From an uncultured Chthonomonadaceae bacterium (lineage in GTDB: Bacteria > Armatimonadota > Chthonomonadetes > Chthonomonadales > Chthonomonadaceae), in NCBI GenBank assembly GCA_963835065.1, contig CAWIEK010000053.1:64001-128000 (forward strand): a stretch of DNA of 64,000 nt, given 5' to 3'. The translations under genes and the position numbers were made by a program. The notes under the pieces are model-generated. The model made no database searches. It was not told the DNA's origin and saw only the letters and a list, made by a program, of their open reading frames with translations. Below are positions 2,610-63,794 of the stretch, piece by piece (the stretch's first letter is position 1; each line of letters begins with the position of its first letter).

Positions 2610-3551
2610 GTGTACATGCCTTTCCACTTCATCGGGCAAAGATTGTTTCGCAGAGCAGGAGAGGATTCAAGAATTTACAGGGCGAATCCTCCTGTGTAAC
2701 GAATAACACCCCATGAGAATTATGTGGGGAGGCCGAAAAACCTTTTGGGCGCGCGTATCAAAATAGATGGTATGTAGAGGCAGCGTCGAAATCTTGGCAA
2801 TGCAGCGCTTCCAGCCCGATGTCTCGTTGTATCTGGTTGTAAGAAGAGGCATCGTGACCTCGGCAGCATCAGGGCGGGCGGGAGTGGGGGAACATAGGCT
2901 TGCACCTCCCTTCCTGAGTAAGTAGTTGATAGTTGATAGGAACTACCAACGTTGCGCTTTCCTGTCTTTATAGTAGACGTTTGTTCTAGTGTTTAGACGG
3001 CTGTGTGGGGCAAAGGTTTCTCTTTTTTCGCGTTGCGCGACTCTTTTTTCTATTATCTTGTTTGTGGGATTGTTGCTGTTGACATACTGGGGAACAGAGA
3101 GAGGGCGCTTGTTTCGAGGGATGAGTGTTGCACAAAACAGGGTGATTTCTTAAACCAGAAAATGCCCCGTTTTGTGCAACAAAAGAATGCTTTGAAAATT
3201 TTGTCATGTGGAGCGGCAAATTGCTGGATGGCGTAGAAAGCCTGATTGGGAAGAGAAATTATAGCCTGAAACTGTGTATACTATGCTGTGAACTAACCAT
3301 TACTTGCTGCCCGTCGCGCATATGATTCAAAGTTGCATCTGTTCCTTTTGTTCTGTCGCCATGAAATTTCGTATCGGGTTTATCAACTGCATGAACCTCT
3401 ACCCGGTTGGGTTGAGCGCCCGAAGTCCACAGACTCAGGATGCGCTTGACACACGTATCGCGCAGTTTGCCGCTACGATTTACACGCTTTTCGACGGTAC
3501 GCGACTCGAAATCGCGCGGCGCTGTGAAGTTGCTACAGAAAATTTGGGAAC

Positions 3552-3938
3552 ATGATGAATACGAACGAGTTTGTCGCCATCCTGCGCAATCCCATACCGG
3601 ACAACACACAACCCGCCGTCAGCATCCTGCGCGAAGTGTCGGAAGCCATTGAAATCGCTACGGATCATAAGGTACGCAGTTGGCTCGAAAAAGGCTTTCC
3701 CAATGTGGAGTACGGGCAGGAGTACCGGGTGATTATCAGTTCAAGCGCGCGCAGCTATGAGGAAACCTTGCTTCGCGCCTATGTTCCGCTTTCCGGGAAG
3801 CCGATTCGCGTATTTCCCGGCGGCAATACCATGCAGGAGTGCGCCGACGAGGTGGAACTGAAAGCGACGTTAAAAGAGTTTTTGCAGGCAGAGCCTGTGC
3901 GGACGCTGATTCAGCAATTCAGCAGCCTCAGCACATGA
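3552..3938 (+). CDS. Hypothetical protein
   Basis: 128-aa ORF with natural composition; no recognised motif. Confidence 0.6.
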   Translation: MMNTNEFVAILRNPIPDNTQPAVSILREVSEAIEIATDHKVRSWLEKGFPNVEYGQEYRVIISSSARSYEETLLRAYVPLSGKPIRVFPGGNTMQECADEVELKATLKEFLQAEPVRTLIQQFSSLST

Positions 3939-4265
3939 ATAAGAACCGTAACTGCAACATGGCGCAGGCAAACCTAACGTTTGGTACAAATTCGTGTCTG
4001 TGGGCAGGCCACAAGCACGTATAAAATTAACATCAAAAGGGTGTTGCTTGGTTCATTTTGGCCCGTTTTCTGCCGTTTTCGGCGTTGTGTCCATACCCCA
4101 TGACGGACATATGTTGGAACACCGCAAAACTCTTAAAACAGCTTTCTCTTATGGGCATTTACGAATTTAGCAAGGCTTCGCAAAAATAAGCAAAAAATTT
4201 TGTCTCAAGCTTTGAATGAGCCTGCCGCGTCAATCTCCTGCCATAGAACCGCGATGGCAGAAGGC

Positions 4266-4604
4266 TCAGGCGACGGCGTACCCGGTATGCGGACGCACAT
4301 CAACGGGGTGGAAAGCAGGTACGATGTCCGATTTTGGGACGCCCGCCGCCTCAATTGTATAGCCAACTCCGTCTTCGGTATTGTCGCGCTGAATCCAAAT
4401 CTTTTCGTTGAGAATGTCCACATGAACAAGACAATAATGGACGCGGCGAACCTGCGTTTCCCAGCCAACAGCCATTACAAGATAGCGGTCATTCGTTTCA
4501 TCAAAGACGGCTTCGTGTCTCATTTCCGGGTTGGAATACTTAAAGTCTGCAATCTCCGTCAGAACTTCGCGCACGATGCGGCGATAGCGCTCTAATTTCT
4601 CCAT
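4266..4604 (-). CDS. xisI: XisI family protein
   Basis: FDETNDRYLVMAVGW...VHVDILNEKIWIQRDNTEDGV...AGVPKSDIV.AFHP...R.HTGYAVA matches the XisI pattern; AAGGA RBS. Confidence 0.9.
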   Translation of the reverse strand: MEKLERYRRIVREVLTEIADFKYSNPEMRHEAVFDETNDRYLVMAVGWETQVRRVHYCLVHVDILNEKIWIQRDNTEDGVGYTIEAAGVPKSDIVPAFHPVDVRPHTGYAVA

Positions 4605-5194: not shown

Positions 5195-5196
5195 TC

Positions 5197-6248: not shown

Positions 6249-6350
6249 GCCGCGCGTTTCTCCGTCAAGCGGGAAGTGGGGGTATTTCAGTATACCCCAC
6301 GCCCGGAAGGGCCGACTTGCAGGGTTCTTCCTTTTACGGCAGTCTGTTGA

Positions 6351-6554
6351 GCCGGGTATTTTCAACGCTTGCTGTGAAATACCTTCCGAGGATTGAAAAT
6401 CCCCGGCAGGAAAGTGCAAGCGTCTTTCAGACGCGATTCTTTACATCAAGATTCCTGCGTCTGTAAGACGCTTGTTTTGTCCTGCCGGGGATTTTCAATC
6501 TCCGGCAACAGATAGAATACGCCCATCTCACAGCAAGCGTTGAAACTCCCTGGC
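6351..6554. repeat. Nested REP/REPIN-like long palindrome
   Basis: Outer arms TTTCAACGCTTGCTGTGA (6360-6377) and TCACAGCAAGCGTTGAAA (about 6528-6545); inner arms 6391-6434 and 6457-6500 built on GCCGGGGATTTTCAA. Confidence 0.85.
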
Positions 6555-6686
6555 AGCCCAAACGACGTGATTTCCCTAAATTTGAAACGCGCCACTTTGA
6601 TTTATGGGGCAGGAAGAAAACCGCTTCATGCAGAACCATACGAACGTACTCTGAAATCGCTTTTGCATTGGAAAGGAAGACGTTCG

Positions 6687-8440
6687 ATGCCGAACCTGTT
6701 TACGCCTGCTGGGGGCGCGTTTCTGATAGAACATACAAACTCTGAACAGGTGTTTATCCCCGAACACTTTACCGCCGAAGACCTGCTGATCGGCAAAACG
6801 GCGGAGGATTTTCTGAACAACGAAGTTCAGCCGCATGTGGAGCGGATTGAGAGCGGCGATCACGACCTGATGCGCGACCTGATGCGGCAGGCGGGCGAGT
6901 TGGGACTGCTTGGCGCGGACGTTCCCGAAGCGTATGGTGGGTTGGGACTGCCGCAAACCACGTGCGCCCTGATTGCGGAAAAACTGAACCCGCAGCAGTC
7001 GTTTGCGCTCACGCACGAGGCGCATACCGTGATTGCCACCCTGCCGCTTTTGTTCTTTGGAAACCATGCGCAGAAACAAAAGTATCTGCCCAAACTGGCA
7101 AGCGGCGAATGGGTCGGCAGTTTCGCGCTCAGTGAGGCCAATTCCGGTTCGGACGCGCTTGCGATGCAGACCCGCGCCACCCTTGCGCCGGACGGCGGCC
7201 ATTACGCGCTCAACGGCGAAAAAATGTGGATCACCAATTCGGCCTTTGCGCAATTGTTTACGGTTTTTGCGCGGACGGCAGACCAGAGTGGAGATAAAAT
7301 CGGCGTGTTTCTTGGTGGAGCGGGACACGCCCGGCCTGAGTTTCGGCAGGGAAGAACACAAACTGGGGATGCATGGCACATCCACGCGCCGGGTGATTCT
7401 GAACGACGTTTGTATACCGGCTGAAAACGCTTTCGGAATCGGGCAGGGGCATTACGCCGCGTTTTGCGCGCTCAATATGGGGCGGTTCAAACTGGAAGCG
7501 GGCGCGGTGGGCGGCTTGAAGTACCCTGCTTTCCACTTGCGCGAAATACGCCGCGCAACGCAAAACGTTCGGGCGGGCGATTGCGGAATATGGCCTGATT
7601 CAGCACAAATTGGCGGAAATGGCCGCGCGGACGTTTGCCCTTGAAAGCATGGTGTACCGATTGGCGGGCGATCTGGAGCGGGCGTTTGCCGACATTGTTC
7701 CCGACGCGCCGGACGCGCCACAGCAGTACCACCGCGCTTCGGAAGAATACGCCATCGAATGCAGCATCGTCAAGGTGATCGGCTCGGAAACCTACTCCAG
7801 CATGGCGGACGAGGCCATTCAAATACACGGTGGGTACGGCTATACGGAGGAATTCCCCGTTGCGCGGGCGTGGCGCGATCAACGCTTATTGCGCATCGGT
7901 GAGGGCGCAAATGAAATTGTCCGCCTTGCGATTGTCAACACTCTGTTACGCCGCGACAAAGCCGGACGCCTGCCCCTCCTGACAGCGCAGCCGACAGGAA
8001 CAGCGCCAACCGCTTCCGCTCCCGAACCTTTGCAAGGCTTGTGGCAGGCGGCAGAGTATTTCAAACTTCTCGGCGTCACCATGCTGCAAACCGCGCAGAA
8101 CAACATGGGAAGCGATTTAGCCGAAGCGCAGGAAGTTTCCGCCGCGATTGCCGATGTCATCTGTTCCGCGTATGCGCTGGAAAGCATCGCCCTGCGCTGT
8201 ACCCTGCTGCAAACTTCCGGCCATGCCCATTACGACGCGGCGATTGCAGCCGCACAGGTAGCGCGCATAGATTACACCGAGGAAGCTATCCGCGCCGCCA
8301 AATACTTTGCGGACAGCGCGAACGCCTCTCCGCTTCTGCTTGGTTCCATGCCGGAAAATATAAGAATGTGCGGCAATCCCATGCAGTTGCGGCGTGATCT
8401 TGCGGCACGGGCGCTGGAAGCAGGCGGGTATCCGGTTTAA
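6687..8440 (+). CDS. Acyl-CoA dehydrogenase (long FadE-type); two frameshifts near 7310 and 7530
   Basis: FALSEANSGSD, LNGEKMWITN, EEHKLGMHGTST and QIHGGYGY...RIGEGANEI are spread over three frames; AAGGAAG RBS. Confidence 0.9.
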
Positions 8441-12395: not shown

Positions 12396-13325
12396 ATGAT
12401 AGCATTACCGAATACCGAACAGGAAATAGGGAACAGGAAACAGGGAACAGGGAACAGGAACCTGTTACTCAACGCTCAACGCTCAACGCTCAACGCTTTT
12501 ACCTTAATTGAGTTGCTCGTCGTCATCGCGATTATCGCCATCTTGGCGGCGATCCTGTTCCCCGTGTTTGCGCAGGCGCGGGAAAAGGCGCGGCAGACAA
12601 GCTGCCTGAGCAACATCAAGCAGATCGGCACGGCCATGCTGATGTACTCGCAGGATTATGACGAGCAGTTCCCCACCGGGCGCTACAATCCCGCGTACCC
12701 CAATCCCGCCGATTATGGCAAAGGATGGGCCAGCGCCCTGTACTCGTATACCAAAAACGCGCAAATTCTCAAGTGCCCCGATGACGGCACGGCAAACGTC
12801 GCCACGTCCAGCGTTTCGCCCGCGCTGTACCCGGTCTCGTATGTCTACAACTACAACATCGCGCAGCAGCCCGGCATTGCCGGCCAGAACGCGCCCGCCA
12901 GCACGGTGCTGATGGGGGAAGTCGTAGGCGATCAGGCCAATGTAGTCGCATCGGGCGAACTGCCCTCGTCTTCAGTTCCCGTGTACTCCCCTGCCGGCAA
13001 CGGCCTGACGGTGCTGACGGCGATAGACGGCAGCGCCATGCCGGGTGTGGCCGGAGCCGTCAAGTACGACACGGGGCCGATGGGCGGCTACCAATTGGCG
13101 GCAGCGCCGCAGGTTCCGTACCCGTCCCTGTTCAAGAACAGCACGGGGCGGCACTCGGATGGCAGCATCTTCTGCCTGGCCGACGGACACGCCAAGTTCT
13201 TCAAGCCGCAGGCGGTTTCTCCCGGCTATAATGCGGGCAGTTCCGACGCGCCGCAGGACAACTCCGTGTATACGGCAGCGGGAACCGCCGACTCGCGCCA
13301 CGCCGTCACTTTCAGCGCCAACTGA
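12396..13325 (+). CDS. Prepilin-type N-terminal cleavage/methylation protein (DUF1559 / H-X9-DG)
   Basis: [41 protein letters not shown]-terminal [25 protein letters not shown] before ATG 12396. Confidence 0.93.
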
Positions 13326-21126: not shown

Positions 21127-21199
21127 CTTGACAAACGGTATGTTTGTCTTGACACACTGTACGTTTGTCTTGACACACTGTACGTTTGTCCGGTAACAT
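21127..21199 (+). promoter_or_regulatory. Three tandem 21-bp units forming the putative tnpB promoter
   Basis: CTTGACAAACGGTATGTTTGT plus 2x CTTGACACACTGTACGTTTGT; the last TTGACA is 18 nt from TAACAT, which is 6 nt from the ATG. Confidence 0.7.
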
Positions 21200-24393: not shown

Positions 24394-24559
24394 CCTGCGC
24401 CTTTGCCTGTCAGTGCCTTTGCCTCTTTGTTCCCTCCGACACCCGCAAAATCCTGCTTGAATACATTTACGCAGGAAATACCGCCCGAAAACGCGAAACA
24501 AAACGTAGATTAGGGCGTGAGTAGGGTTTTAGGGTTTTAGGCGGGTGAAGGCAGGGGAT

Positions 24560-29239: not shown

Positions 29240-29350
29240 ATCGGTCTCCTTCCAGAAACAGTTTGTCGCTTGGGCGGCGTTGAGGGGAAACAGCACGCCT
29301 TTCGTATTCTCCCTGCCCGGCGCAAATACCTGCGTCCGTAAGAACTATTT

Positions 29351-29552: not shown

Positions 29553-29656
29553 CTTCCGCTTTACCGTGACGTAAATAGTGACGCGGGAGGAATGAAAGGC
29601 GTCTGCGTCGAATAACAGGCACAATAATCCAATGTTTCGCAAGGAGAACCCGACCC

Positions 29657-31732
29657 GTGACCACCGATGCAACGCCGCAACTTAATCCCAATAGTAATGC
29701 CGATGCGCAACAGCCGCAGGCATTTCCGCCACCGCCCGATTTTGCGCGACAGGCTAATGCCAACAATTCCGATATTTACGAACTCGCCAATCAGGACACG
29801 GAAACATTTTGGGCCGAGTGCGCCCGCGAATTGACGTGGATTACGCCGTTTCAAAGCGTTCTGGAATGGAACCCGCCTCATGCCCGCTGGTTTGCCGACG
29901 GTCAACTCAACGTCAGCGCGAACTGCGTGGATCGGCATTTGCAGGCGCGAAGTGACAGGCGGGCTATCGTGTGGGAGGGAGAACCCGGCGAAGTCCGAAC
30001 CCTGACGTTTGCTGAACTGTCGCAGGACGTGAACAAATTCGCTAACGTGCTGAAAAGCCTGGGCGTACAAAAGGGAGACCGCGTGACTCTGTACATGCCG
30101 ATGGTTCCCGAAGCCGCGATTGCGATGCTGGCTTGTACGCGCATCGGCGCTCCTCATTCCGTCGTGTTCGGCGGCTTTTCCGCCGAAGCGTTGCGCGAAC
30201 GTACCATTGACTGCGGCTCCAAAGTGATTATCACGGCGGATGGCTACTGGCGGCGCGGCGGCATCGTGCCCCTCAAGCAGACAACGGACGAGGCGGCAGA
30301 AGCCTGCCCAACCGTAGAAAAGATCGTCGTCCTGAAACGCATCGGCGAACAGGCCAATGCCACGATGCAGTCCGGCCGCGACCTGTGGTGGCACGACCTG
30401 ATGGCAGACGCTTCCCCTGACTGCCCGCCCGAACCCATGAACGCGGAAGACCCGCTTTTCATTCTCTACACCTCCGGCAGTACCGGCAAGCCCAAAGGCA
30501 TCCTGCACACAACCGGCGGCTACCTGACCGGCGCTTACATCACCACCAAACTGATCTTCGACATCAAAGACACCGACCTCTACTGGTGTACGGCTGACAT
30601 CGGCTGGATTACCGGCCACTCCTATGTCGTCTACGGCCCCCTTGCCAACGGCGCGACGGTTTTCATGTACGAAGGTTCGCCGGATTGGGGAAAAAGCAAG
30701 GATGAAGGCGGAAGGATGAAGGATGAAAAACAAACTCCTGATTCATCCTTCATCCTTCATCCTTCATCCTTTCAAGATCGTGGGCGTTTCTGGGACATGA
30801 TCGAACAGCATAAGATTACCATTTTGTACACCGCGCCGACGTTGATACGCTCGTGTATGAAGTGGGGAGATGAGTTCCCACACGCGCATGATTTGTCGAG
30901 TCTGCGGCTTTTGGGAAGCGTGGGCGAACCGATCAACCCGGAAGCGTGGCTGTGGTATCACGAGCATATTGGGAACGGCAAATGCCCGATTGTGGATACG
31001 TGGTGGCAGACGGAAACGGGCGCAATTATGATAACGCCCCTGCCCGGCCTGACCACAACGTACCCCGGCAGCGCAACCCGCCCGTTCCCCGGCATTGAGG
31101 CGGATGTGGTGGACGAGAAGGGCAACCCGGTTCCTAATGGGAAAAATGGAATCTTAGTGATTCGTAAGCCCTGGCCGTCCATGCTGCGAACGCTGTGGAG
31201 CAACGATGAGCGGTACAAACAGGTGTATTGGAGCAAGTTCCCCGGCCTGTACTTCCCCGGCGACGGAGCCATGCGGGACGCGGACGGCAATTTCTGGCTG
31301 TTAGGCCGCGTGGACGATATCATACTTGTCGCAGGTCATAACATTAGTACGATGGAAATGGAAAGCGCGCTCGTAGAGCATCCCGCTGTGGCCGAGGCGG
31401 CAGTTGTCGGCAAAACGCACAAGGAGAAATGGCAAGTCCCCATCGCCTTCGTCGTTATCCGCGAAGCCCACGCGCCCGACAAAGACGACAAAGCCGCTCT
31501 CAAAGCCCTGAGCAGCGAACTGAAAGCGTTCGTGGCAACCAAACTCGGCGCGATCTTCCGCCCCGACGACGTGATCTTAACCGCCGATCTGCCCAAAACC
31601 CGCAGCGGCAAAATCATGCGCAGATTGCTGCGCGACATTGCCGAAGGCCGCGTCATGGGCGACACCACCACCCTCGCCGACCCCAACATCATCGCCAGCC
31701 TCAAAGACAAGTACGCCGACGAGGAAAATTGA
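29657..31732 (+). CDS. acs: Acetyl-CoA synthetase, with an in-frame repeat-derived insertion
   Basis: [61 protein letters not shown] start with AAGGAG RBS. Confidence 0.96.
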
Positions 31733-35919: not shown

Positions 35920-36109
35920 GCAGCACCTCTTGGGATTTTCGATTGATGATTTTCGATTGATGATTAACAATGCAACTTATGCATCTTCCATCTTCCATCT
36001 TCTGCCTTCTGTCTTCTGTCTTCTGTCTTCTTCCTACCATTAGTGTGCGCGAGAAGACAAAACGTAACCGGGCAGGAGAAAATCTTTTTCGCGTCGAAAT
36101 AGAGGCGCA

Positions 36110-36952
36110 ATGAAAGCATCGGCCAGGAACGCGGAAGACTCCGCTTTGAACGAACAACACACACAGGCACAGCAGGAGAGGCAGGCGCGGCAGGCGCATA
36201 CGAGCCGCATTGTGGCCCTGCTGGAAGCGGAATATGGCGTCCCGGAATGGCTGCCCCGGCTTGATCCGCTGGAAGAGTTGGTCGCCTGCATCCTGTCGCA
36301 GCACACGTCGGATGTCAACTCGTTTCGGGCGTTTGCGCGACTGCGGGACAGGTATCCCTCGTGGCGCGCGGTTGAAGAAGCGCCGGCCTCGGAACTCGCG
36401 GACACCATTCGCTGCGGCGGGCTGGCGGACAGCAAAGCGCCCCGCATACAGGCCGTGCTGCGCGCCATAGAAGCCAAACACGGCACTTTGGAATTGACGT
36501 TTCTCAACACAATGCCGGATGCCGACGCCCGCGCTTATCTGATGTCGCTTCCCGGCGTCGGTCCCAAAACCGCCGCGATTGTGCTGTGTTTCGCTATGGA
36601 ACGGAATGTGCTGCCGGTAGACACCCATGTGTTTCGCGTCGCATGGCGCTTGGGACTGATTGACAAGAAAATCGGCGAAGCCAAAGCCCACGACGCGCTG
36701 CAAGCCCAAATCGCCCCGGATTTAACATATCGCTTCCACGTCGCTTTAATTCGGCATGGCCGCCAAACCTGCAAAGCGCTCGCGCCGCGCTGTGCCGCGT
36801 GTCCATTGACGGGGATGTGTGAGTATTATCAAAGGGGTCAGGATTCAGGGATCAGGGGTCAGGAACAAGGCGACAGCGTTTCTGCGCAAATGCCTGCCGG
36901 CAATATGCAGGATGGTAACAACAAAGACAGAGTGGCTGTTCCTGACCGCTGA
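36110..36952 (+). CDS. nth: Endonuclease III (HhH-GPD glycosylase)
   Basis: ILSQHT.D, LPGVGPKTA, PVDTHV.R, and the 4Fe-4S motif C-X6-C-X2-C-X5-C. Confidence 0.9.
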   Translation: MKASARNAEDSALNEQHTQAQQERQARQAHTSRIVALLEAEYGVPEWLPRLDPLEELVACILSQHTSDVNSFRAFARLRDRYPSWRAVEEAPASELADTIRCGGLADSKAPRIQAVLRAIEAKHGTLELTFLNTMPDADARAYLMSLPGVGPKTAAIVLCFAMERNVLPVDTHVFRVAWRLGLIDKKIGEAKAHDALQAQIAPDLTYRFHVALIRHGRQTCKALAPRCAACPLTGMCEYYQRGQDSGIRGQEQGDSVSAQMPAGNMQDGNNKDRVAVPDR

Positions 36953-36974
36953 ATCCTGACACTTCGGAGGTTTT

Positions 36975-38666
36975 ATGCTTCTGCACGACATTATAACCGA
37001 AGGCGCGCAAACGCGCCCGCAGGAAATCGCGCTGATTTTTCGGGATCAGCCGCAAACATTCGCGGAATTGGCCGCGATGGTAAGCCGATTCGGGGCAGGA
37101 TTGGCGGCGCTTGGGATTGCAGCGGGCGATAAAATCGGCCTGCTGCTGCCCAATTGCCCGCCGTTCGTGTGGGCGTACTATGCCGCCTCGCAAATCGGCG
37201 CAATTGTCGTACCCGTCAATCCCCTGCTGAAAGCGGCGGAACTGGAATACATCTGGCGGGACGCGGACGTAAAACTCGTGGTTACGGCAGGCCCCCTGCT
37301 GCCCATCGCGCAGGCCGCGCGCCTCAATTTGCCCAACTTCCGCCACATCGTCAGCATCACGCCCCGCGAAGAACTTGCCGACACATCCCTCGCCGCCCTC
37401 CCCGGCCTGACGTTCCTGACTGATGTGCTGACAGGCGGGGAAGAACAGGGAACAGGGAACAGGAGAGCAGGGAACAGAAGGAACATGCTGAACAGGGGAC
37501 AGTGGATCAGTGAATAGAACGAGCATCCGAAGACAGAAGTCAGCATTCAGCAGCTCATCAATCGTCAATCGGCAATCGACTATCAGCAATCGACTAATGA
37601 CTGCGCTGTCATCATCTACACTTCCGGCACTACCGGGCATCCGAAGGGCGCGATGCTGTCACACCGGAATTTGACGCGGAATGTGGAACAGATACAGGCG
37701 CGCTTGCAGTTTCTGCCCGAAGACCGGTTTGTTACCGTGCTGCCGCTGTTTCATGCGTTTGCCGCAACCGTGTGCATGAACACCTGCCTTGCGGCGGGCT
37801 GCGCGTCCCTGCTGCTGGAAAACTTTACCCCGGCGCGCGTTCTGGAAACTATCTCCAGGCATAAGGCGACCATTTTCCCCGCCGTGCCCGCCATATTCAA
37901 TGCCGTGCTGAATCTTCCCGTCGAACACGCTCCCGATACCTCCAGCCTGCGCGTTTTGGTGTCGGGCGGAGCGCCGTTGCCCGCGCCGACATTGGCGGCA
38001 TTGGAGCAGCGGTTCGGCGTACCCGTTCTGGAGGGGGATGGGCCGACGGAGTGCAGCCCGGTCACGTCCGTCAACCCACTGGATGGGCCGCGCAAAATCG
38101 GCAGCGTCGGCCCTGCCCTGCCGGACGTGGAAATCGCTATTTTCGACGCGCAGGACAAGCCTGTGGAAACGGAAGAGGTCGGTGAAATCGTCGTTCGTGG
38201 CGACAACGTGATGCTCGGCTACCTAAATCAGCCCGATGCCACCCGCGAAGCCATGACAAACGGTTGGTATCACACGGGCGATTTGGGTAAACTGGATGCG
38301 GACGGCTATGTGTTCATCGTGGATCGCAAAAAGGACATGATTATCACGGCGGGGCTGAACGTGTACCCGCGTGAAGTCGAAGACGTATTGCTTTCCCATC
38401 CCGGCGTAGCGGACGTGGCTGTCATCGGAACGCCGGACACCCTGCGCGGCGAGGATGTGCTGGCGGTTGTGGTCGCCCGCCCTGATGTTCCTGCCCCCTC
38501 CGAGCGCGACCTGATCCGCTATTGCCGAGAACGGCTGGCAAACTACAAAGTCCCGCGTCAAATTCTGTTCCGCGCAATGCTGCCGCGCGGCGCAACCGGC
38601 AAAGTGGTCAAGCGCCTGCTCAAAAAAGAACTGGAACTCGAATCCAACCCGCCAACGAGCGAGTAA
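36975..38666 (+). CDS. Long-chain fatty-acid--CoA ligase interrupted by one in-frame TAG (37515-37517) inside a repeat-derived linker
   Basis: ORFs 36975-37517 and 37653-38666 are in the same frame; reading through gives AVIIYTSGTTGHPKGAML, GWYHTGD, DRKKD, YPREVE, GKV. Confidence 0.88.
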
Positions 38667-38757
38667 CCTGCTATAGCGCTTCTTTATCTAAATGCTCTTT
38701 ACTTGATGCTCTTTACTTGGTCGCTGCTCTTCTCCCTGTTGTGAAAGGACGGTTCTC

Positions 38758-39916: not shown

Positions 39917-40169
39917 GAGAGTTCACCACCCGATACGCTAGAGAAAAGAAGAAGAGAAGAGATTAAGAACCGCGAAACACACGAAACACACGAAAAAGGA
40001 CAAAAGGAGAAAAAGTATTGAATACAACCCTGCGAAATGGCTGCTCTTCTTTGCCCTCTTTGCTCCTTTGCGGTTCTTTTTGGTTTTCCTTTTCCGTTTA
40101 TTTCGTATGTTTCGCGGTTTCTATCTCCTCTTCTTCTCGTATTGGTTTTTCCTCTGTGTCTCTGTGTCT

Positions 40170-42021: not shown

Positions 42022-42138
42022 GACAACTCCTTTCAGGATAACCCTCTTGCCAATAGCGCGTATATCTAATGCCTGATGCCTAATGCCTAATGCCTATATG
42101 CCTTCCACATCTCACGCCGCGTCTGTAGTATACTGTGT

Positions 42139-44626
42139 ATGTCGAATTTGCAAACACCTTTACCTATGCGTAATCGCCAGTATACAACTCGCCCGCCATT
42201 CCCTTCGTCAGATGATGCGCCTCCCGTTCCCCACGACGAGCAGGCTGCGCCACCCTACGCCTACAGTAAGAAGACAGAAGAGCAGGGAACAGGGAACAGG
42301 GAACAGGGAACAGAAGCAACTCAATCCACAATCCACAATCCACATTCGGCAATCGAAAATTCCCTCAACCCCTTTAGCGATACGCTGACGGGGGTTTTGG
42401 AGCGTGTCACGTACCATAATGAGGATAATGGGTACACGGTGGGGCGTTTAGCCGTCGAGGGCGCGCGGGATTTGATTACGGTTGTCGGTAATTTTACCAA
42501 CCCGGTTGTGGGCGAGCAACTCGTGTGCGAGGGCAAGTGGACGGCGCATAAAGAGTTCGGGCGACAGTTTGCGGTGGAGCGCTACCAGATGACCAAGCCC
42601 GCCACCGCCTTTGCCATTGAAAAGTATTTGGGCAGCGGCCTGATTAAAGGCATCGGGCCAGTCATGGCGAAGCGCATGGTGGATTTGTTCGGACTGGAAA
42701 CCTTGGACGTGATTGAAACCGATCCGCGCAAATTGCTGCGCGTGGGCGGCATCGGCGAAAAGCGGATCGAGAAAATCCAAAAGGCCTGGCACGAGCAGCG
42801 CGAAATTCGCAACGTGATGCTGTTTTTGCAGGGGCATGGCGTGTCGGCAACCTATGCGGTGAAAATCTACAAGACGTATGGCGACAAGGCGATACGAACC
42901 GTTGAAGAAAACCCGTACCGATTGGCGCAGGACATCTGGGGCATCGGGTTCAAAACGGCGGACAAGATCGCGCAGCAGATGGGCATTGCGCTTGAAAGCG
43001 AAAAACGTCTGGAAGCCGGATTGCTATACACCCTTTCGGAAGCGACGGACTTTGGGCATTTGTTCCTTCCCGAACCGAAACTGCTCACGTCGGCAGCCGA
43101 AATTTTGAGCGTGGAACCCGAAATCATCGCGCCCATCATGGAAAACATGGCCGCATCGGAAGCCGTAATCGCCGAGGATGTGGAAGGCGTCGAAATGGCG
43201 GGACGAGCAATGCGCGCCTTCTACCATCCCGCGCTGTATTATACGGAAGTGGGATTGGCCGCGCAAATACGCCGCAGGTTACAGCAGGACGCGGACAGGC
43301 CCGTGAACCGGGAAAAGATCGCCGCATGGATTACGCAGCAGGAAAAGCAGGCCGATATTACGCTGTCCGAGGAGCAGTCCGAGGCTGTAATGCTGGCTCT
43401 GGAAAAGAATTTTCTTGTGCTGACAGGCGGCCCGGGGACGGGTAAGACCAGTGTCACCAATTTGATTGCCCGCGCTTTCGACGCGCAGCATAAAAAGATG
43501 GTGCTGGTATCTCCCACCGGGCGCGCGGCCAAGCGCTTGAGCGAAGTGACGGGGCGGGAAGCGATGACCATTCACCGCCTGCTCAAGTTCGACCCGGCCA
43601 CGCACAGTTTTCAGTACAACGAGCAGAACCCACTTCCCTGTGATGTGCTGATTGCCGACGAGGTTTCCATGCTGGACGCGGTGCTGGCAAACAACCTGCT
43701 CAAAGCCATCCCGGAAACCGCGCAGGTGGTGTTTGTCGGTGACAGCGACCAACTTCCTTCAGTGGGCGCGGGCAACGTGCTGGGCGACCTGCTGAATTCA
43801 GGCGTGGTTCCGTCCATTCGCTTGACGCAGGTGTTCCGGCAGGCGCAGCAGAGTTTGATTGTGACCAACGCGCACAAAATTCGCAAGGGCGAGTTCCCCG
43901 TTCTGGTTCCGCCCAAGGAGCGCGACGGCAAGAACATGCTGTTTGTCGAAGTGGAGGAGGGGGAGGAGGGCGCGGACAAGGTTGTCGCGCTGGCCCGTAA
44001 GTCCCTGCCCGGCTTGGGCTATCGGGGCGATGATGTGCAGGTGTTGTCCGCGCTGAAAAAAGGCTCGTTGGGCGTGGACTATCTGAACCTGCGCCTGCAG
44101 GACGCGCTCAATCCCGCCGACCCGACAGGACGCGCGCCGGAACTGCTGCGGGGTTCGCGCCGGTTCCGCATCGGCGACCGCGTAATTCAGCTTGTCAACA
44201 ACTACGACAAGAACGTGTTCAACGGCGACATCGGCACAGTCGCCGACATCAAGCCGGAAGACCAAATCTTCTTCGTGCGCTTCGGGGAAGAAACCATCGA
44301 GTACGATTATGCCGACTACGATGAGTTGCAACTTGCATATGCGGTTTCAGCATCCATAAAGGCAGGGCAGCGAGTACAAAGCCGTGATTTTAGTGATGCA
44401 CTCCAGCCAGTACATGATGCTGCAGCGCAATTTGCTGTACACGGGCCTGACGCGGGCGCGCGACTTGTGCGTACTCGTCGGCGACAAAAAAGCCATTGCC
44501 CGCGCCGTCAAGAACGACAAAACCACCCGCCGCTATACTCGCCTCGCCGACCGCCTGCGCGAACAAAACAAGACTGATGAAGTACCAGTAAGCACAGTAT
44601 CTGCAAGTGGAAATCAGAGTTCTTGA
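42139..44626 (+). CDS. recD2: RecD2-type ATP-dependent DNA helicase; frameshift near 44350
   Basis: LERVTYHNEDNGYTV, YLGSGLIKGIG, TGGPGTGKT, PTGRAAKRL, DEVSM, GDSDQLPSVGAG, FNGDIG, LQRNLLYTGLTRA. Confidence 0.95.
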
Positions 44627-49658: not shown

Positions 49659-49787
49659 GGGGAAGGCATTAGGCATTGGGCATTAGGCATTAGCGGCAGG
49701 GCAGAAGGCAGAAAGCAGAAGATAGAAGCTAGAAAAGGATTGTGCCTCTTCTCTAATGCCTAATGCCCAATGCCTAATGCCTTCCCC
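49659..49787. repeat. Inverted pair of AGGCATT heptamer arrays (perfect 35-bp arms)
   Basis: 49659-49693 is the exact reverse complement of 49753-49787. Confidence 0.92.
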
Positions 49788-49881
49788 CCTGCTTGCAAAA
49801 TAATTGCGGAGGGTTGTAGAAATCGTGAATTTCTAGTATAATAGGCGGGAAGCACATAGCTGCAATTCCGCGGGTCTTGCG

Positions 49882-50643: not shown

Positions 50644-50976
50644 CACAACATTGTCGGTATTCGGTATTCGGTGTTCCGGTGTTCGGGTATTCAGGTGGTG
50701 GATTTTCGATTGCCGATTGTGAATGCGGCTTCTGTCTTCAGTCTTCTTCCCTAATGCCTGATGCCTAATATCTTCTGCCTCTCACATCTTAATTTGCAAA
50801 CAGCAGCGCGCGGAACATCGGTACAGAGTTCCGCGCGTTGTTGTTACGGCTCCCAGCAGGGCTTATTCTTCCTCATTATGCCTTGCTTGCGCAAACAGGT
50901 TACGGCTCGAAAACGTATAAATAGTGAGTGCCATTAGTCCTCACGCAAGCCCGCAGACAGGGGAAGGAGCCGCAAA

Positions 50977-51285: not shown

Positions 51286-51428
51286 GAAGAGAAGAAAAAG
51301 AGAGAAAAGGAGACGGCATGCCCAATTCCTGAACACCCGAACACCTGAACACCGAACACCGAACTCCTGAATACCCTAACCACATAGAACCCTGAAACCC
51401 TGAAACTCTAAAACCTATTACCGGATCA

Positions 51429-51710: not shown

Positions 51711-53133
51711 ATGAGCGAATATGACGCGGTGGTGGTGGGATCGGGACCGAATGGACTGGCGGCGGCGATTGTGATGGCGCAGGCGGGGCGTTCAGTTCTC
51801 GTGCTGGAAGCCGAACACCAGTTGGGCGGCGGCGCGCGCACGTTCGAGCTGACCCTGCCCGGATTTCGGCACGACATTTGCTCCGCCGCGCATCCCCTGG
51901 GCTTCGCTTCTCCCTTTTTTCGCCGACTTGCCGCTTGCCGAACACGGCCTGGAATGGATACATCCGCCATTTTCGCTCGCGCATCCGCTGGATACCGGCG
52001 AAGCGGCCATTTTAGATCGCTCGGTAGACGCTACGGCGGCGCGGTTGGGCGCGGATGGGCGCGCGTACAAGCGCCTAATGACGGATTTCGCCGCGCATTG
52101 GGATGACGTTCTGGAAGACGCGCTTGCGCCGCCGATTCATGTTCCCAAACATCCGCTTCTCATGGCGCGTTTGGGCTGGTACGCGGCGCGTTCGGCGGCA
52201 GGGCTGGCAAAGTCGCTGTTTCGTACCGATCCGGGGCAGGCTTTGCTGGCGGGCATTGCCGCCCATGCCGGTACGCCGCTCACCAATCCCATTTCCGGCG
52301 CGTTCGGCCTGATGCTCGGCGTCACGGGCAATGCGACGGGCTGGCCGATTGCGCGGGGCGGGTCACAGTCCATTTCCGACGCGCTGGCCTCGTACCTGCG
52401 TTCGCTTGGCGGCAAAATCCAGACGGATACCCGCGTCACATCGCTGGACGAACTGCCGGCCAGCAAAACGGTCTTCCTCGATTTAACGCCGCGTCAGGCG
52501 CTCAAAGTGGTTGGCGACAAAATGCCCCTCGAATTCCGGCGTCAGCTTGGCCTCTACCGCTACGGCCCCGCGTCCTTCAAAATAGACTGGGCGCTGGACG
52601 GGCCGATCCCGTGGAAAGCGCCCGAATGTGCCCAGGCGGGAACCGTGCATCTCGGCGGCACGCTGGAAGAACTGATCGACTCGGAAAACAAGCCTATCAA
52701 CGGCGAAATTCCTGACCGCCCGTTCGTGCTTGTGGTGCAGCAAAGCGCGTTCGATTCGACCCGCGCCCCGGAGGGAAAGCATACGGGATGGGCGTGGTGT
52801 CACGTCCCTCTCGGCTGCAAGGAAGACATGACGGGACGCATCGAAGCGCAAATCGAGCGGTTCGCGCCCGGTTTCCGCGACCTGATTCTGGCGCGCGCAA
52901 GCATCAAGGCCACGGAAATGTCCGCCCACAACGCCAATTTAGTCGAGGGCGATATTGGCGGCGGCACGGTAGACATACGGCAATTGTTCCTGCGCCCCAC
53001 GCCGCGCATCAACCCCTACACAACCCCGATGAAGGGCGTCTATCTCTGCTCGTCCTCCACGCCTCCCGGCCCCGGCGTCCATGGCATGTGCGGCTACAAC
53101 GCTGCCCAAACCGCGTTGCATGACGGCTTCTAA
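51711..53133 (+). CDS. Phytoene-desaturase-family FAD-dependent oxidoreductase; frameshift near 51930
   Basis: [47 protein letters not shown]. Confidence 0.9.
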
Positions 53134-53262
53134 ATATCGGTGTTCAGGTGTTCGGTATTCAGGTGTTCAGGAGGTTGGATTTCCGGCTGCAAAGCATGAA
53201 AGCGAATGTTGACAGCCTCCTTTCGTTCTGATATACTCCCTGCAACAAGGAGGAATAAGAGT

Positions 53263-57079: not shown

Positions 57080-57457
57080 AGAACACCTCGCAAGATTCTC
57101 TGAAGGATTTAGAAAAGACAAAAAGACACAGAAAAAAGAGCAAAATAACGCGAAAAAAGGCGAACCTTTTGCTCCACACAATCGTCTAAATAGTAGAATA
57201 CAGTCTACTATTCAAATGTTAGACACCGGAAGGGAGGTGCCAGTCCTATGTTTCACCCCTCCCGTTCGCCCTGACGCCGCTGAGGCCCTGATGCCTCTCT
57301 CCTACAACCAGACACAACGAGACATCGGGCTGGAAGCGCTGTATTGCCAAGATTTCGACGATGACTCTACATATCTTTTTTCTACCTGCCGCTTTCCCAA
57401 CGCTTCCAAGATTTCCCGTTAGCAAAGGTTGAGTTCCCCGCTGGTTCGAAAACTTAA

Positions 57458-58955: not shown

Positions 58956-59162
58956 AAACAGCCTTTTCTTTCCGCATCCTTATTAAAGCGCTAAATTAAA
59001 GCGCTAAGGCGCGTTGGAGATTGGTTAAAACCTGAGTTTAGTAGGTAGGCATTAGGCATTAGGCATTAGAACAACCCTTGTTCTCTCTTGCTGCACAGCA
59101 AAAGGTACGCAAAGCAGTTCCTAATGCCTGATGCCTAACGCCTAATGCCTGATGCCTGATGC

Positions 59163-61250
59163 CTACTTGTTATTCACCGTGACGCCCGGCCAGGTATCGG
59201 TGCGGAAGGGGGATGCGGGCAGGCCGGCTTTGTTATACAGGTTGGCAACCGGGTTGATGTGCCAGGCGTAGCGGACGGCAACCGGATTGGAAACCTGCGC
59301 GGACGAAACGACGATGCTGTCGCCCTCGATTTTGGCGTCCGCCCACGCGAACTTGTGATCCTCGCCCGCGATGGCAAAGCCTTTGAGCGGTTCGCCGTTC
59401 GGGGTTGTCAGGCCACCACTGTGCGCGAATGTCAGGCGAATACGATTGCCTTCCACCTTCATAGACTTGTACTCCGGGCCGGAATACTCGATCTTTTCGC
59501 CGTATGTTTTCGCAAGGGCGACCAGGGCGAGGCGCTTGCCCACGTCCTGCTTGTTTTTGGGGTGGATGTCGCCCGCGTCGCCGATGTCCGTTGTGACCGC
59601 AATGCCCGCGTTCGGCAAATGCTGCGCCGTCATAGATTGGGCTTCGCGCAGTTCCGCCCACGCATCCTCAACCGGGTTGGGATTGGGCTGCTGCCAGTTC
59701 GCCAGTTGCACGATATAAAACGGGAAATCGCCTTCCTTCCAGCGGCTCCTCCAATCCGTAATCATCGCCGGCAGCAGGGTACGGTACTGGTACGCCTTGC
59801 CCGCGTTGGACTCGCCCTGATACCAGATGGCTCCCTTAATGCCCAGGGGGATGAGGGGCGCAATCATGCCGTTGTACAGCACGGTGGGGGCGTTGGGATT
59901 GTTATCAATGGGAGTCGGGAGCGGCTTGGCTTTGGGCAAGGGTACGCCCACTTTGTATTTCCACGCGCCCGTCAGGGGGATTTTGCGCCCGTCCGTCACT
60001 TCCAGGTACATCTGTTCCGGCTTGCCCGTGAAGCCCCCCGCCCCGCCCGTGTCCAGCACTCGCACGGCGATCTCGTTTTTGCCTGCATGCAGCGCGCCGA
60101 GCGGAAGCGTATAGGTCCGTTCTGCCGTCGCCGCGTCTGTGGCTCCCACCAGCCTGCCGTTGACCCATGTGGTATCGCGGTAATCAATAATTCCCAGGTG
60201 CAGAATGCACTGGCGGCTTTCCTCCCCCTCCGCCAGTTCAAATGTGCGCCGATACCACATCACGCCGTCAAAATTCGCCAGTTCGGGAACGCCGGATTGC
60301 TCCCACGCGCCGGGCAGGTTCATCGTCTGCCAGTTCGCGTCGCTGAAATCCATACCGTTCCAGATTTGCGCCGTGCCAGGATCGTTGGCAATGTACCAGT
60401 CGGTCATCATCGCCAGGTAGGGGCGTTCGCCCCGCGCCATGCGCGTCCGCACTTCCGCCATCCGTTCCACCGCCGGGGCATACTCCGGCACTTTCTGCGC
60501 CAGGGCTTCCCCGCTCGTCCACGCTTCCGCCGGGGTTCCGCCCCACGAGGTATGAATCAGGCCGATAGGCACTTTCAGGTTCTCATACAGATCGCGGCCA
60601 AAGAAATAGCCGACAGCCGAAAAGCCGTTCCAGCCGCCTGCCCGCACCGTTTGCGGGGTACACACGTCCCACTTGCCCGTGGGAACGGCGCGGGGTTCCA
60701 TAGCAATGTCCTTCGTCACCGTGAACAGGCGGATTTGCGGGTAATTGGCGTTTGCCACTTCCTGCGCGGCGTTGTTGACGTTGCCGATGCCCATTTCCAT
60801 ATTGGACTGCCCGGAGCAGACCCACACGTCGCCCATGAGAATGTTGCTCAGTGTCACGGTTTGCGGGCCGGTTATGCTCAGGGTGTACGGCCCGCCGGCG
60901 GGCAGGGGCGGCAGTTTCGCCGTCCATTTGCCGCTGGCGTCCGCTTTGGTTTTGGCTTCGTGGTCGCCAAGCTGCACGGTCACGGCCTGCCCCGTTGTCG
61001 CCCAACCCCAAATCAAAATGGGACGGTCGCGCTGCAGCACCATGTTGTCGCTGAACAGGGGGCTGAGGAAGGGCAGGTTGGCAGGAGCGGCAATGGCGCT
61101 GTTGGGCGCGGCAGCCGTCAGCCCAAGCGTGGCAGCGCCCGTCAGAAAGGGTGCAACGCCCATTGCCAGCGCCAGCCGCAGCAGGGAAGTTCCCGGTTTA
61201 CGGCAAGCGCGAAACGTTGTGGTTTTGCTGGATTGCATCGTGTTCAGCAT
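59163..61250 (-). CDS. Secreted sialate O-acetylesterase-family (SGNH) protein
   Basis: FSDNMVLQR, CSGQSNM, SWGGT, WYQGESN, DIHPKNK, PASPFRTD. Confidence 0.92.
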   Translation of the reverse strand: MLNTMQSSKTTTFRACRKPGTSLLRLALAMGVAPFLTGAATLGLTAAAPNSAIAAPANLPFLSPLFSDNMVLQRDRPILIWGWATTGQAVTVQLGDHEAKTKADASGKWTAKLPPLPAGGPYTLSITGPQTVTLSNILMGDVWVCSGQSNMEMGIGNVNNAAQEVANANYPQIRLFTVTKDIAMEPRAVPTGKWDVCTPQTVRAGGWNGFSAVGYFFGRDLYENLKVPIGLIHTSWGGTPAEAWTSGEALAQKVPEYAPAVERMAEVRTRMARGERPYLAMMTDWYIANDPGTAQIWNGMDFSDANWQTMNLPGAWEQSGVPELANFDGVMWYRRTFELAEGEESRQCILHLGIIDYRDTTWVNGRLVGATDAATAERTYTLPLGALHAGKNEIAVRVLDTGGAGGFTGKPEQMYLEVTDGRKIPLTGAWKYKVGVPLPKAKPLPTPIDNNPNAPTVLYNGMIAPLIPLGIKGAIWYQGESNAGKAYQYRTLLPAMITDWRSRWKEGDFPFYIVQLANWQQPNPNPVEDAWAELREAQSMTAQHLPNAGIAVTTDIGDAGDIHPKNKQDVGKRLALVALAKTYGEKIEYSGPEYKSMKVEGNRIRLTFAHSGGLTTPNGEPLKGFAIAGEDHKFAWADAKIEGDSIVVSSAQVSNPVAVRYAWHINPVANLYNKAGLPASPFRTDTWPGVTVNNK

Positions 61251-61613
61251 TAAATCTCCTTGTATTCTGAATAGCTATTTTGAATAGCGGCGGCAAGGCT
61301 CTGTTGGAGCGCGCCGGAAAGGTGTTCAGCATAGCCTAAAGTCCGTATTGCGGGTAGAATTAGTTTCACTTCCGCAACGTCAATTTCCTCTTTAGGGTTT
61401 CAACGTCGTTTCCAATTTAAAGCAGTCTCCTGAGCCGGGATTTTTCAATTCTCAGCGCGGAATGGCGCTTGTGACGTAGTTCACACAATAAATGTGGCGC
61501 ATGGTATTGCAAAATACAAGCGAATATGCTATGTTCCTTTAGATTATAGCGCGGTGAAAATACCGCGGTGATGCGCGCGCCACGCTAACAAGGCGAGTAT
61601 AAAGGAGAGGGAC

Positions 61614-63513
61614 ATGAGCTTATTTATCCGCGTTTTTCACAACAGCGACCATGCCTGCGTCGTGTGGGGGCCGGACGATCCCCGCGAGGCTTTGCCCGGC
61701 TGTCTGGGTTTCGCGATCCGGCGGCGCAAAGTGGGAGATACCAGTGAGGGAGAAGCGCTGCACAACTTCACCAGCTTCGATCTGGACAATCAGAAGCCGG
61801 GAACGTCGGCGGAAAGCACGGTCTGGCCCGTGCAGCGCTTCAACTGGTGGGACTACGCGCCCAACAGCCAGGACGCGACGGTGGCCTTCGAATATAAAAT
61901 CGTTCCTCTGACCAAAGGGGAAGCGGGGTTTGCGTACGGCGAGAAGCCCCTGCCGACAATGACTAACCTGGCAACGGAATGGAAGGGGCCGCTCAATGTC
62001 AGCCAGGATTGCGGCGACGGCATTTCATGCTACTTCAATCGGGGCATTGTCGCGGCGGAGTGGGTGTCCCGCGCCCTGAAAGCCAAAGAAACGCCCGGTG
62101 AAGCGCCGGGCAAAGCGCTGGCAGAGGCGATCAAAACGCCGGGGGATAAACTGCGCGACGAACTGGGCGGCGTCCTGAAAACCAAACTGCTTGATGTGCT
62201 GAAAGACGTAGATGCGAATGGCGGCACGATTTTCGCCGCGCTGTACGAACTCAACGACCCGGAACTGATGGCGGCCATTCTCAAGTTGGGCATGAAGGCC
62301 AACATCATTCTTGCCAACGGCGCGTTTTCCAAAGAAAAGCCGGACGAGAACAAGGAAGCGCGGGAAGCCCTGCGCGGCAAAGTGAACCTCTTTGACCGCA
62401 TGGTGTCGCAGGGGCATTTCGCGCATAACAAGTTCATGGTTATCTGTGACGCCAAAGGCAAGCCGCAAAGCGTGTGGACGGGCAGCACCAACTGGTCGGT
62501 GACGGGGCTATGCACCCAGGCCAACAACGGCATCCTGCTGCAAGACCCGGCGGTGGCGAATGCGTTTGTGGAGCAGTGGCAGCGCCTGCACGAGGCAGGC
62601 AACGGTTTCCCGGACGCGCTGAAAAGCGCGAACTCGCAGCAAAAGCAGTTTCTCATGGGCGGCAAGGAAGTGAAACGGCAAAACGCAGGGCGGCAGCCTG
62701 GTCACGCCCTGGTTCGTGCCCACGCTGCATCAGGAGGACTTGCAGCACGCGCGCCGCTTGATTAACGGGGCGCAGGACGGCATTCTGTTTCTGATGTTCG
62801 AGCCGGGCAGCTTCGAGGCCGAGCCGGCCAAGTGGACGCTGCTGCAATCCATTCTGAATCGGCATCAGCCCGCGCCCAATCCGTACCTTAACCTCAGCCT
62901 GTATATTCGCGGCGTGGTCAACCAGGATGTGCCGAGCCTGACGGAAGAACCCAAAGTGACGAAGCCAACGGATGCGGCGGCGGCAGGCCAGGCGGGCGAC
63001 GGAACCGCAGCGGAAGCAACCCACCGCGCCATGGGGCATGAACTCGATCCGTCCGCGCCCACGCATACCACCACGCTGTTCAGTTCCGGCAATGCGTCTC
63101 CCGTCCGCACTACCGATGATGTGCTGACGCCCAAAGCCATTAAAGCAGGCTTCGGCCCCTGGGTTCCCGAACTGCTTAATCAGGGCGTGAAGATACACAG
63201 CAAGATGATCGTGATTGATCCATTCGGCGAGCATCCCGTCGTGATGACCGGCTCGCACAACATGGGCTACAAGGCCAGCACGATGAACGACGACAACCTG
63301 GTTATCATCGAAAACAACCCGGCGCTGGCGCAGGCGTATGCGGCCAGCGTGATCGCCGTGTACAACCAGTATCGCACCAACCTGCTGGCGGGACAGCCGG
63401 GCGCGGCGACAGGCTTCGCGCTGAAGAAGGATGACAGTTGGCAAAAGAACCACTTCGTCAATCCCGATCTGGAAGAACTGAACTTCTGGCTGAAGGTGAC
63501 GAAGGAGGTGTAG
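61614..63513 (+). CDS. Phospholipase D superfamily protein with two HKD-type motifs; frameshift near 62700
   Basis: HNKFMVICD...WTGSTN and HSKMIVID...TGSHN; AAGGAG RBS; TTGCAA/TATGTT promoter-like site near 61507-61535. Confidence 0.88.
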
Positions 63514-63794
63514 GGGGTTAGGCAGTAGGCAGTAGATATTAGATATTAGATGGGAACCCGTATACTGCGCTGAATATCTTAATTTATAATCTGATGCCTA
63601 ATGCCTACTTGAAGAAAGGCCATCTCGTAGAGCGAGATGGTCCTTTTTATGCTTTACTTAGAAGTGCCGGGGGTTGAAAATCCCCGGCATATAAACTATT
63701 TTCGCCATGCCTTGAACCCTTTCTGCGCGCAATGGCTCCATACTAACAGACACGAAATCCATTTATTGGAAATGCTCTTCGAGGACGGCTATTT

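Follow-up and report, generated by a model that had tools for sequence, protein, structure and literature searches.

The window analysed here, a stretch of 64,000 nucleotides (G000:C53:64001-128000), comes from the genome of an uncultured Chthonomonadaceae bacterium, designated G000 (8.0 Mb, 57% GC, 71 contigs). A preliminary description of the window listed tandem heptamers of varying sequence at 15 sites, and short tandem arrays are present at all of them. Genome-wide analysis showed that the arrays form the ends, pointing inward, of small inserts that make up a family with about 1,600 sites in G000: elements of approximately 115 bp (typically 100-130 nt) in which oriented arms of tandem, non-palindromic words stand on either side of a loop. 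Throughout, F denotes the form of a word that stands first in inverted pairs (the G-rich form) and R its complement. The elements of the window are as follows, with folding given as z and the strand given where one was assigned:

2923..2953: short AGTTGAT arm with a decayed partner, intergenic
12417..12497, plus strand: an AGGGAAC arm followed by a non-complementary AGCGTTG reverse arm, within the leader of a type IV pilin-like gene (probable start 12397), whose frame the pair keeps; no fold, z -0.10
24522..24541: period-8 arm AGGGTTTT without a detected partner
30690..30780, plus strand: AAGGATG hairpin lying in frame within an acetyl-CoA synthetase (acs) loop that is variable; z -8.36
35934..36031: non-complementary composite of a GATTTTC arm with CATCTTC and TCTTCTG reverse arms, located where an ECF sigma gene and an endonuclease III-like gene diverge
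36833..36960, plus strand: 3'-terminal AGGGGTC element of the endonuclease III-like gene, whose open reading frame (ORF) continues through it to the TGA at 36950-36952
37443..37596, plus strand: composite of non-complementary arms, situated in the linker of a gene for an acyl-CoA ligase, with equal frame on both sides
42066..42103: solo reverse arm of the AGGCATT family
42269..42362, plus strand: AGGGAAC arm and non-complementary GATTGTG reverse arm, placed in frame within the linker at the N terminus of RecD2; folds weakly, z -1.44
49659..49790: matched AGGCATT hairpin of five cores, containing a mirrored variant unit and, on the inside, a GGCAGAA module; z -8.96
50654..50769: non-complementary composite starting 10 nt past the stop codon of a sigH-like gene
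51287..51415: composite starting 2 nt past a stop codon, with period-7 and period-8 reverse arms
53137..53171: period-8/7 arm AGGTGTTC, 4 nt past a stop codon; a related arm occurs at this site in the relative G002
59046..59165: matched AGGCATT hairpin with a 50-nt loop, whose outer end provides the TAG stop (59163-59165) of a minus-strand gene; z -6.97
63519..63606: composite AGGCAGT/AGATATT element with a decayed reverse arm, 5 nt past the TAG at 63511-63513; z -2.75

A constant period of seven had been described for all of these sites and was found at 11 of the 15; the arrays at 24522 and 53137 have period 8, and those at 50655 and 51325 mix periods 7 and 8. The strict array scan behind the genome-wide catalogue recovers 12 clusters in the window against these 15 sites. 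An Rfam scan of the window returned two tRNAs only.

The cyanobacterial STRR are heptameric repeats, and the over-representation of period 7 against neighbouring periods that marks these and the heptameric long simple sequence repeats (SSRs) was also found in G000. Exact lag-match runs of at least 20 numbered 816 genome-wide at period 7, compared with 0, 0, 73 and 2 at periods 5, 6, 8 and 9, and a 5th-order Markov control gave 0 such runs at every period. A mismatch-tolerant scan identified 2,172 period-7 arrays, built from 106 words, and 10, 47 and 473 arrays of periods 5, 6 and 8, so that the excess proposed in the preliminary description is far beyond chance. After merging, 2,634 arrays formed 1,616 clusters, which together take up 1.5% of the genome. 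An origin of the arrays as artefacts of the G000 assembly is ruled out, because short-read contigs of related strains break at them or, in one case, span them. The assembly does contain single-base insertion errors (bases at window positions 39314, 41781 and 42039 are absent from related-strain contigs), and findings of frameshifts in G000 therefore need care; split genes lie at 6540-8440, 42139-44577, 51711-53133 and 61614-63513 of the window. A 14-bp tandem duplication at 38692-38719 is single in contigs from three runs. Gene classes were assigned with our own gene caller (6,590 genes, 75% coding), which missed some genes.

The arms are arranged with a fixed polarity. Among matched pairs the G-rich form stands first in 493 of 493, and no word occurs in both orientation sets. 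The first arm, previously described as purine-rich, is better described as G-rich: G equals or exceeds C in the F form of all 493 pairs and 449 contain AG, while 42 of the 493 are pyrimidine-majority. Clusters of two arms are F-R in 618 cases (450 matched, 168 non-complementary) and R-F in 2, and R precedes F in 12 of the 748 clusters that hold both forms; the G-rich strand thus always reads from the flank towards the interior of the element. Because 168 non-complementary F-R clusters stand against two R-F clusters, the polarity rule is independent of pairing. Inverted pairing itself was confirmed for 980 of the 2,634 arrays (78±11 with shuffled words); complementarity fails in the 168 of 618 F-R clusters. 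In the window, strong folding was seen for matched pairs (z -7.0 to -9.0) and not for two non-complementary pairs (z -0.1 and -1.4). The loops of matched pairs peak at 52-63 nt in length.

The arms are modular, with up to five AG-type cores spaced 7 nt, sometimes 8 nt, apart. For 13 heptamer words, 1,639 arms with two, three, four, five, six, seven and eight cores numbered 96, 367, 338, 796, 36, 4 and 2, respectively. The core-count search requires two exact units, so that short arms are under-counted and long arms are not. Only 42 of the 1,639 arms exceed five cores, and the fall from five to six cores is 22-fold. Five cores were counted in 215 of 253 AGGGAAC arms; as many of these sit in non-pairing elements, the cap is not accounted for by unstable hairpins. 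Arms of the octamer AGAAAAGG likewise most often have five cores (34 of 63), indicating that units rather than bases are counted. Arrays of 80 and 95 nt exist, so the assembler does not set the limit. The cap extends to some relatives: the ratio of six-core to five-core matches was 0.17-0.27 in G000, G001, G002, G032, G043, G015, G062 and G041. The word AGAGACAC, of the type found with GxxExxY genes, has three cores in 81 of 82 arms genome-wide.

Loops, which had been thought unique, are often shared between elements. A relative elsewhere in the genome, scoring above all 80 shuffled controls, was found for 156 of 364 loops. Related loop pairs had unrelated flanks in 859 cases and lay in duplicated segments in 13; identity stops at the outer ends of the arms, and whole elements (arms and loop) occur at unrelated loci. 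Copying shows a local bias, with 8 of 67 strong best loop hits within 10 kb against 0.4% expected. One loop type can carry quite different words on both arms. Among 69 AGTAGTC elements the loops were a median 50% identical, while the arms departed from the ideal word at 1.4% outside the search anchors; this family is nearly confined to G000 (57 motif matches, against 1 and 0). No target-site duplication was detected in 364 elements at k=3-8, where observed and shuffled values were equal, and old insertions could have lost a short one. The preliminary preference for dedicated spreading over plain slippage is thus borne out by the recurrence of loops at unrelated loci, by hopping over short distances, by the constant polarity and by the cap at five units.

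Comparison with sister species separates the history of elements from that of their words. The relatives G002 and G001 often hold elements with other words at the sites used in G000, namely the acs loop, the acyl-CoA ligase linker, 36833, 49659 and 59046. The same acs codons carry an AGGGATG element in G002, an AGGGAAC element in G015 and a short loop in G001; the same codons of the ligase linker carry other inserts in G002 and G001; and G002 has a GGTGATT-type element at 36833 and an AGGGAGT hairpin at 49659. Sites 50654 and 51287 are empty in both G002 and G001. Several junctions of the ribosomal protein operon carry elements, with differing words, in three to five genomes; its tightly coupled junctions are unfilled, and G005 has no elements in this operon. 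Of 364 loops, the G000 orthologue is the best match of the rpoA-rplQ loop of G002, with the word changed; the identity of this pair (36 of 61, 59%) is near the 62% found at 1,538 four-fold sites, and hypermutable loops, suggested by the 50% identity within G000, were rejected. Three orthologous-site loop pairs were tested, and they ranked first, seventh and as unrelated. At truA-rplM, G000 and G002 have the reverse arm in common and not the forward arm. Between species, words shift in all units together. From these comparisons of loops and arms, elements can be old, with loops drifting approximately neutrally and arms refreshed as modules: elements can persist at junctions across species while their arms change word together or one at a time. 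No empty sites were obtained from related strains, as their contigs break at the arms.

Inserts also occur inside genes. Of 311 clusters in ORFs, 176 are separated from either end by 50 codons or more and have coding signal to each side. In a paralogue test, 54 of 61 in-gene elements were open, compared with 134 of 150 control stretches of 100 nt, with a median gain of 24 residues; 7 of 61 elements and 16 of 150 controls (approximately 11%) were broken, where two thirds would be expected to be shifted without constraint. As they are open as often as controls, in-gene elements are translated and not spliced, and the test rules out a self-splicing or excised intron. The exception is the acyl-CoA ligase insert, in which an in-frame TAG (37515-37517) denotes a broken gene or an assembly error, between which it does not discriminate. 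Non-complementary elements made up 73 of 84 two-arm elements in genes, compared with 94 of 528 between genes. Forward arms in genes were AGGGAAC (98), AGAAGAC (18) and purine octamers (26), whereas the stop-bearing words AGGCATT, AGTTGAT and AGTAGTC gave 0 in-gene forward arms against 217, 169 and 147 intergenic ones, and the hydrophobic LSSVFCL reading of reverse arms was never used. Non-complementary pairs prevail in genes because only stop-free words with a hydrophilic reading occur there. The resulting peptides are combinatorial, consisting of interchangeable 10-residue arm peptides. The hydrophobicity bias and the paralogue test are free of circularity. In the acs forward arm (window 30698-30727; L015), a variant of the second unit that avoids an in-frame TGA is common to G000 and G002, a sign of selection on translation.

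G000 has three four-helix-bundle genes (G000:C8:32017-32325, C25:14102-14416 and C33:57207-57524) and three GxxExxY genes, all within inverted arms; the armed genes found are TIGR02436 and TIGR04256. The three four-helix-bundle genes carry heptamer or AG-octamer arms of abundant words (AGTAGTC, AGAAAAGG and AGGGAAC/AGGTTAC), and all three cassettes lie between protein-coding genes, not in the 23S rRNA gene. There is thus a candidate for the protein that the preliminary description placed outside the window. A survey of the class examined 24 of 30 fetched four-helix-bundle loci, weak or partial matches being left out, and found period-7 flanks at 18 and inverted flanks at 23. Among 30 GxxExxY loci none had period 7, 17 had periods 8-10, 1 had period 12 and 12 had none; 25 were inverted. 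Control loci had period-7 flanks in 1 of 41 cases. Of the two gene families named in the preliminary description, four-helix-bundle genes thus go with period 7 and GxxExxY genes with periods 8-10. For the best 80 of 329 cross-phylum relatives, period 7 was found at 58 and inverted arms at 61, the G-rich form was upstream in 34 against 1, and the modal arm was 31 nt. At least 40 five-core matches were present in 18 of 26 class genomes with the gene and in 4 of 35 without it, a comparison in which kin are not independent. The four-helix-bundle protein of G000 matches PDB entries 2GSC and 2RLD, each with five chains. The Xanthomonas relative 2GSC is given as a toroidal homopentamer in PMC4990558, which cites Lin 2006. 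The model of Avd, the accessory protein of diversity-generating retroelements (DGRs), is matched weakly (E 3.4e-6, 27 bits against a cut-off of 80); Avd is described as a pentameric, positively charged barrel that works with a reverse transcriptase (PMC6182149). A gene that resembles a DNA methyltransferase gene, judging by its translation, appears to be interrupted at L034 (G042:C51:18999-19313) by a four-helix-bundle cassette that has decayed and bears heptamer arms.

On balance, and with moderate confidence, we favour a REPIN-like non-autonomous element whose arms would be bound by a predicted four-helix-bundle (TIGR02436, Avd-like) pentamer, one core per subunit. The inserts probably derive from cassettes that, when complete, enclose the four-helix-bundle gene, and would be copies of these without the gene. 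The ring of five subunits would bind a single arm with its five heptamer cores, reading phased cores on single-stranded nucleic acid and not the whole word; such a core-reading pentamer would explain the fixed period with free sequence, the cap at five and a polarity that does not depend on pairing. Ring proteins such as TRAP provide an analogy for one core per subunit. The pentamer may bring the arms together, and host repair or recombination enzymes may then copy elements or exchange arms. Surviving elements are located between a stop codon and the ribosome-binding site that follows it, or within protein loops whose frame they keep. Any effect on mRNA processing would probably be secondary. 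Binding by the pentamer, its counting of units and the step that cuts and joins DNA are what we infer. A bolder version, which we put forward only tentatively, makes the pentamer the engine of a transposase-free mobility, with each subunit reading an AG core in 7-nt phase, the ring gauging arms of five units, and modular arms being copied and swapped whatever their word.

Several observations weigh against a counting pentamer. A fixed count can also be a founder effect, as the three cores of AGAGACAC illustrate, and the words AGTGATG, CGATTTT and AGGTGTTC peak below five cores. The cap is limited by lineage and absent in some relatives: the six-core to five-core ratio is 0.49-0.76 in G046, G044, G055, G051, G058, G022, G029 and G026, mostly of another family, and 16 of 81 cross-phylum arms, from the best 80 of the 329 relatives, are longer than 35 nt. 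Few arrays are present in 8 of the 26 class genomes with the gene. Conversely, G001 (97% complete, 3 contigs) and the fragmented G043, G015 and G003 have arrays, and neither Pfam nor our own profile found the gene in them. The arms of G001 are sparser (11 against 21-49 per 100 kb); perfect arms numbered 0 of 19 in G001 against 20 of 83, a difference in purity that is not significant (p=0.085). Simple nesting of whole elements was rejected, 0 of 13 FFRR clusters being mirror-nested. The in-gene word counts are partly circular, as arms containing stops would break the calling ORF. Finally, we know of no activity or function for TIGR02436.

The alternative that survives best, though we consider it unlikely, dispenses with a dedicated protein: arrays would arise and be homogenised by polymerase slippage, be mirrored by template switching and be spread by ectopic gene conversion, with small genes merely caught between arms. 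Heptamer excess is widespread, and an explanation by polymerase footprint has been published (Rehm 2015, PMC4692102, citing Mrazek 2007). In keeping with this alternative, 110 of 387 positions at which arms vary show the variant mirrored in the opposite arm, all units of an arm shift word together between species, and arrays are present in four genomes in which the gene was not found. Slippage leaves unexplained the polarity of non-complementary pairs (168 against 2), the 22-fold drop from five to six units in 7- and 8-mers alike, and the split in period between the two passenger families.

A somewhat less probable alternative is that the elements are RNA hairpins selected by the host after stop codons, as RNase III sites, decay barriers or ribosome-coupled signals of the kind proposed for repetitive extragenic palindromic (REP) sequences, with pairing keeping the arms perfect. 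The location of the clusters bears on this reading. Of the 1,616 clusters, 1,288 are intergenic (946 co-directional, 166 convergent and 176 divergent), 311 are in ORFs and 17 are at contig edges. The association with stop codons noted earlier holds: 67% of 504 co-directional multi-arm elements begin at most 12 nt past the upstream stop, and in 133 long gaps 66% begin within 12 nt of it against 21% expected. The commonest stop-proximal case is one in which the first AG of the arm completes a TAG (67 of 385 arms near a stop), and an empty site in G032 places the insertion between stop codon and ribosome-binding site. The ribosomal protein operon holds 12 clusters in 19 kb where 3.8 are expected, and occupancy rises from 7% to 20% with increasingly ribosomal-protein-like codon use, a trend confounded with gene age. 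Identical junctions are occupied in several species and tightly coupled ones are not, and intergenic two-arm pairs are mostly matched (434 against 94 non-complementary) with strong folds. However, non-folding pairs (z -0.10 and -1.44) keep both polarity and count, divergent gaps are occupied too (176 of 849, against 946 of 3,516 co-directional gaps), and G005 has no elements in its ribosomal protein operon. The examination of orientation that had been proposed gave a fixed polarity of arms, while loop orientation ignores transcription (28 against 27). The general reader of RNA hairpins suggested in the preliminary description is not supported, given these non-folding pairs and this independence from transcription. 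Selection after stops would account for retention of the elements, not for their origin.

Least probable is a retro-element in which an Avd-like protein and a reverse transcriptase would add or copy G-rich repeats, five units per round, onto 3' ends at DNA breaks in the manner of telomerase: the weak Avd match, the partnership of pentameric Avd with a reverse transcriptase (PMC6182149), G-rich strands running 5' to 3' from both flanks and the lack of target duplication fit 3'-end addition, but loops are inherited with arms and show no transcription bias, both reverse transcriptase genes of the genome lie outside cassettes (one beside cas-like genes), and adenine-specific mutagenesis of the DGR type was rejected, all four bases mutating alike in the 69 AGTAGTC loops (A, C, G and T columns 62, 59, 63 and 69% conserved). 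Heptamer arms were found at 0 of these 2 genes. One of the two (G000:C49:679208-683817) stands among genes resembling cas6, cas2 and cas1, as read from their sequences, beside the ribosomal protein operon. A RAYT-type helper was also rejected, as 0 of 4 PF01797 Y1 matches had an array within 700 nt; no catalytic mobiliser was identified among the reverse transcriptase and Y1 genes checked, DDE families not being searched. The Y1 transposase-like genes at G000:C42:76532, C51:103107 and C49:523763 each lie in their own inverted arms, and that at C49:523763 has tandem 14-nt units, possibly a RAYT-REP system beside the heptamer one.

Other repeats are present in the window. A 200-bp palindromic element lacking tandem words (29345-29565) is missing at the orthologous site of G002, where its type has many copies elsewhere; its arms may resemble those around DUF559 genes. 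A gene-less element at 39935-40195 has nested arms of AGAGACAC and a 9-mer, and its arm type is that flanking the GxxExxY gene at G000:C19:8329. At 21127-21190, a 21-bp unit is repeated three times directly before a frameshifted TnpB-like gene, and an intergenic repeat of 160-300 bp at 57100-57400 has many copies in G002.

Reports of a heptamer excess in bacteria go back to 2007 or earlier, and no cause has been put to the test. TIGR02436 is widespread and has solved pentamer structures, and the present analysis turns a loose association into a quantitative prediction: five cores, a 7-nt phase, the G-rich strand and no pairing. If the pentamer were indeed the engine, it would explain the heptamer excess, give TIGR02436 a function and reveal how peptide modules of 10 residues come to be inserted, by the hundred, into protein loops. 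These elements have rewritten no fewer than 176 protein loops, together with most of the loosely coupled junctions in the ribosomal protein operon, which matters for annotation and as a source of new protein sequence.

The elements of G000 share features with several known systems. DGR Avd (PMC6182149) is a four-helix-bundle pentamer related to the candidate protein; the latter falls below the Avd cut-off, no reverse transcriptase is adjacent, and no adenine mutagenesis is seen. Short length, absence of coding sequence and terminal inverted repeats (450 matched two-arm elements of 100-130 nt) recall class II miniature inverted-repeat transposable elements, whereas the target-site duplication expected of these was not seen. 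Intervening sequences of 23S rRNA with an S23p ORF have the same protein family within terminal inverted repeats, a 28-bp stem being described (PMC4990558), but the cassettes of G000 lie between protein genes, hundreds are gene-less, and copies in genes are translated and not excised. Rickettsia palindromic elements are likewise selfish repeats in frame in unrelated enzymes; these are palindromes of about 150 bp with a conserved peptide, and 44 insertions are reported (PMC10969869), whereas G000 has at least 176 in-frame inserts of interchangeable arm peptides, most of them not palindromic. The likeness to REPIN-RAYT systems (Bertels and Rainey 2011, PMC3337134) extends to two inverted conserved arms, a less conserved spacer of typical length, hundreds of copies, and a small gene flanked by the same arms as candidate helper. 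In contrast, the arms of G000 consist of tandem heptamers instead of palindromic REPs, the gene between them does not encode an HUH transposase, hybrids are common where they are reported absent in SBW25, and many copies are in frame in genes.

The closest precedents in sequence are heptameric. Long SSRs of GGGAATC in Xanthomonas and GGGGA(C/T)T in Nostoc (Rehm 2015, PMC4692102) show the period-7 excess, a mostly intergenic location with some copies in ORFs, and convergent inverted pairs (70 and 75 in two xanthomonads), and the heptamer TAACTGA stands in intergenic sets of two to six units in Beggiatoaceae (MacGregor 2015, PMC4679880). In the accounts of long SSRs there is one word per genome, and G-quadruplexes, slippage or binding of a regulator are proposed; the terms 'four helix' and 'helix bundle' occur 0 times in the main text of these two papers, and no paper linking such arms to the four-helix-bundle or GxxExxY family was found in the literature searched (mostly non-subscription, supplements excluded). 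The heptamer excess and inverted pairs (PMC4692102) and the intergenic heptamer sets (PMC4679880) were thus already published. Unlike the long SSRs, the elements of G000 comprise 106 words, common loops, hybrid arms, a five-core cap and a link to a gene, and what they add to the published picture is the five-unit cap, a polarity independent of pairing and the swapping of arms.

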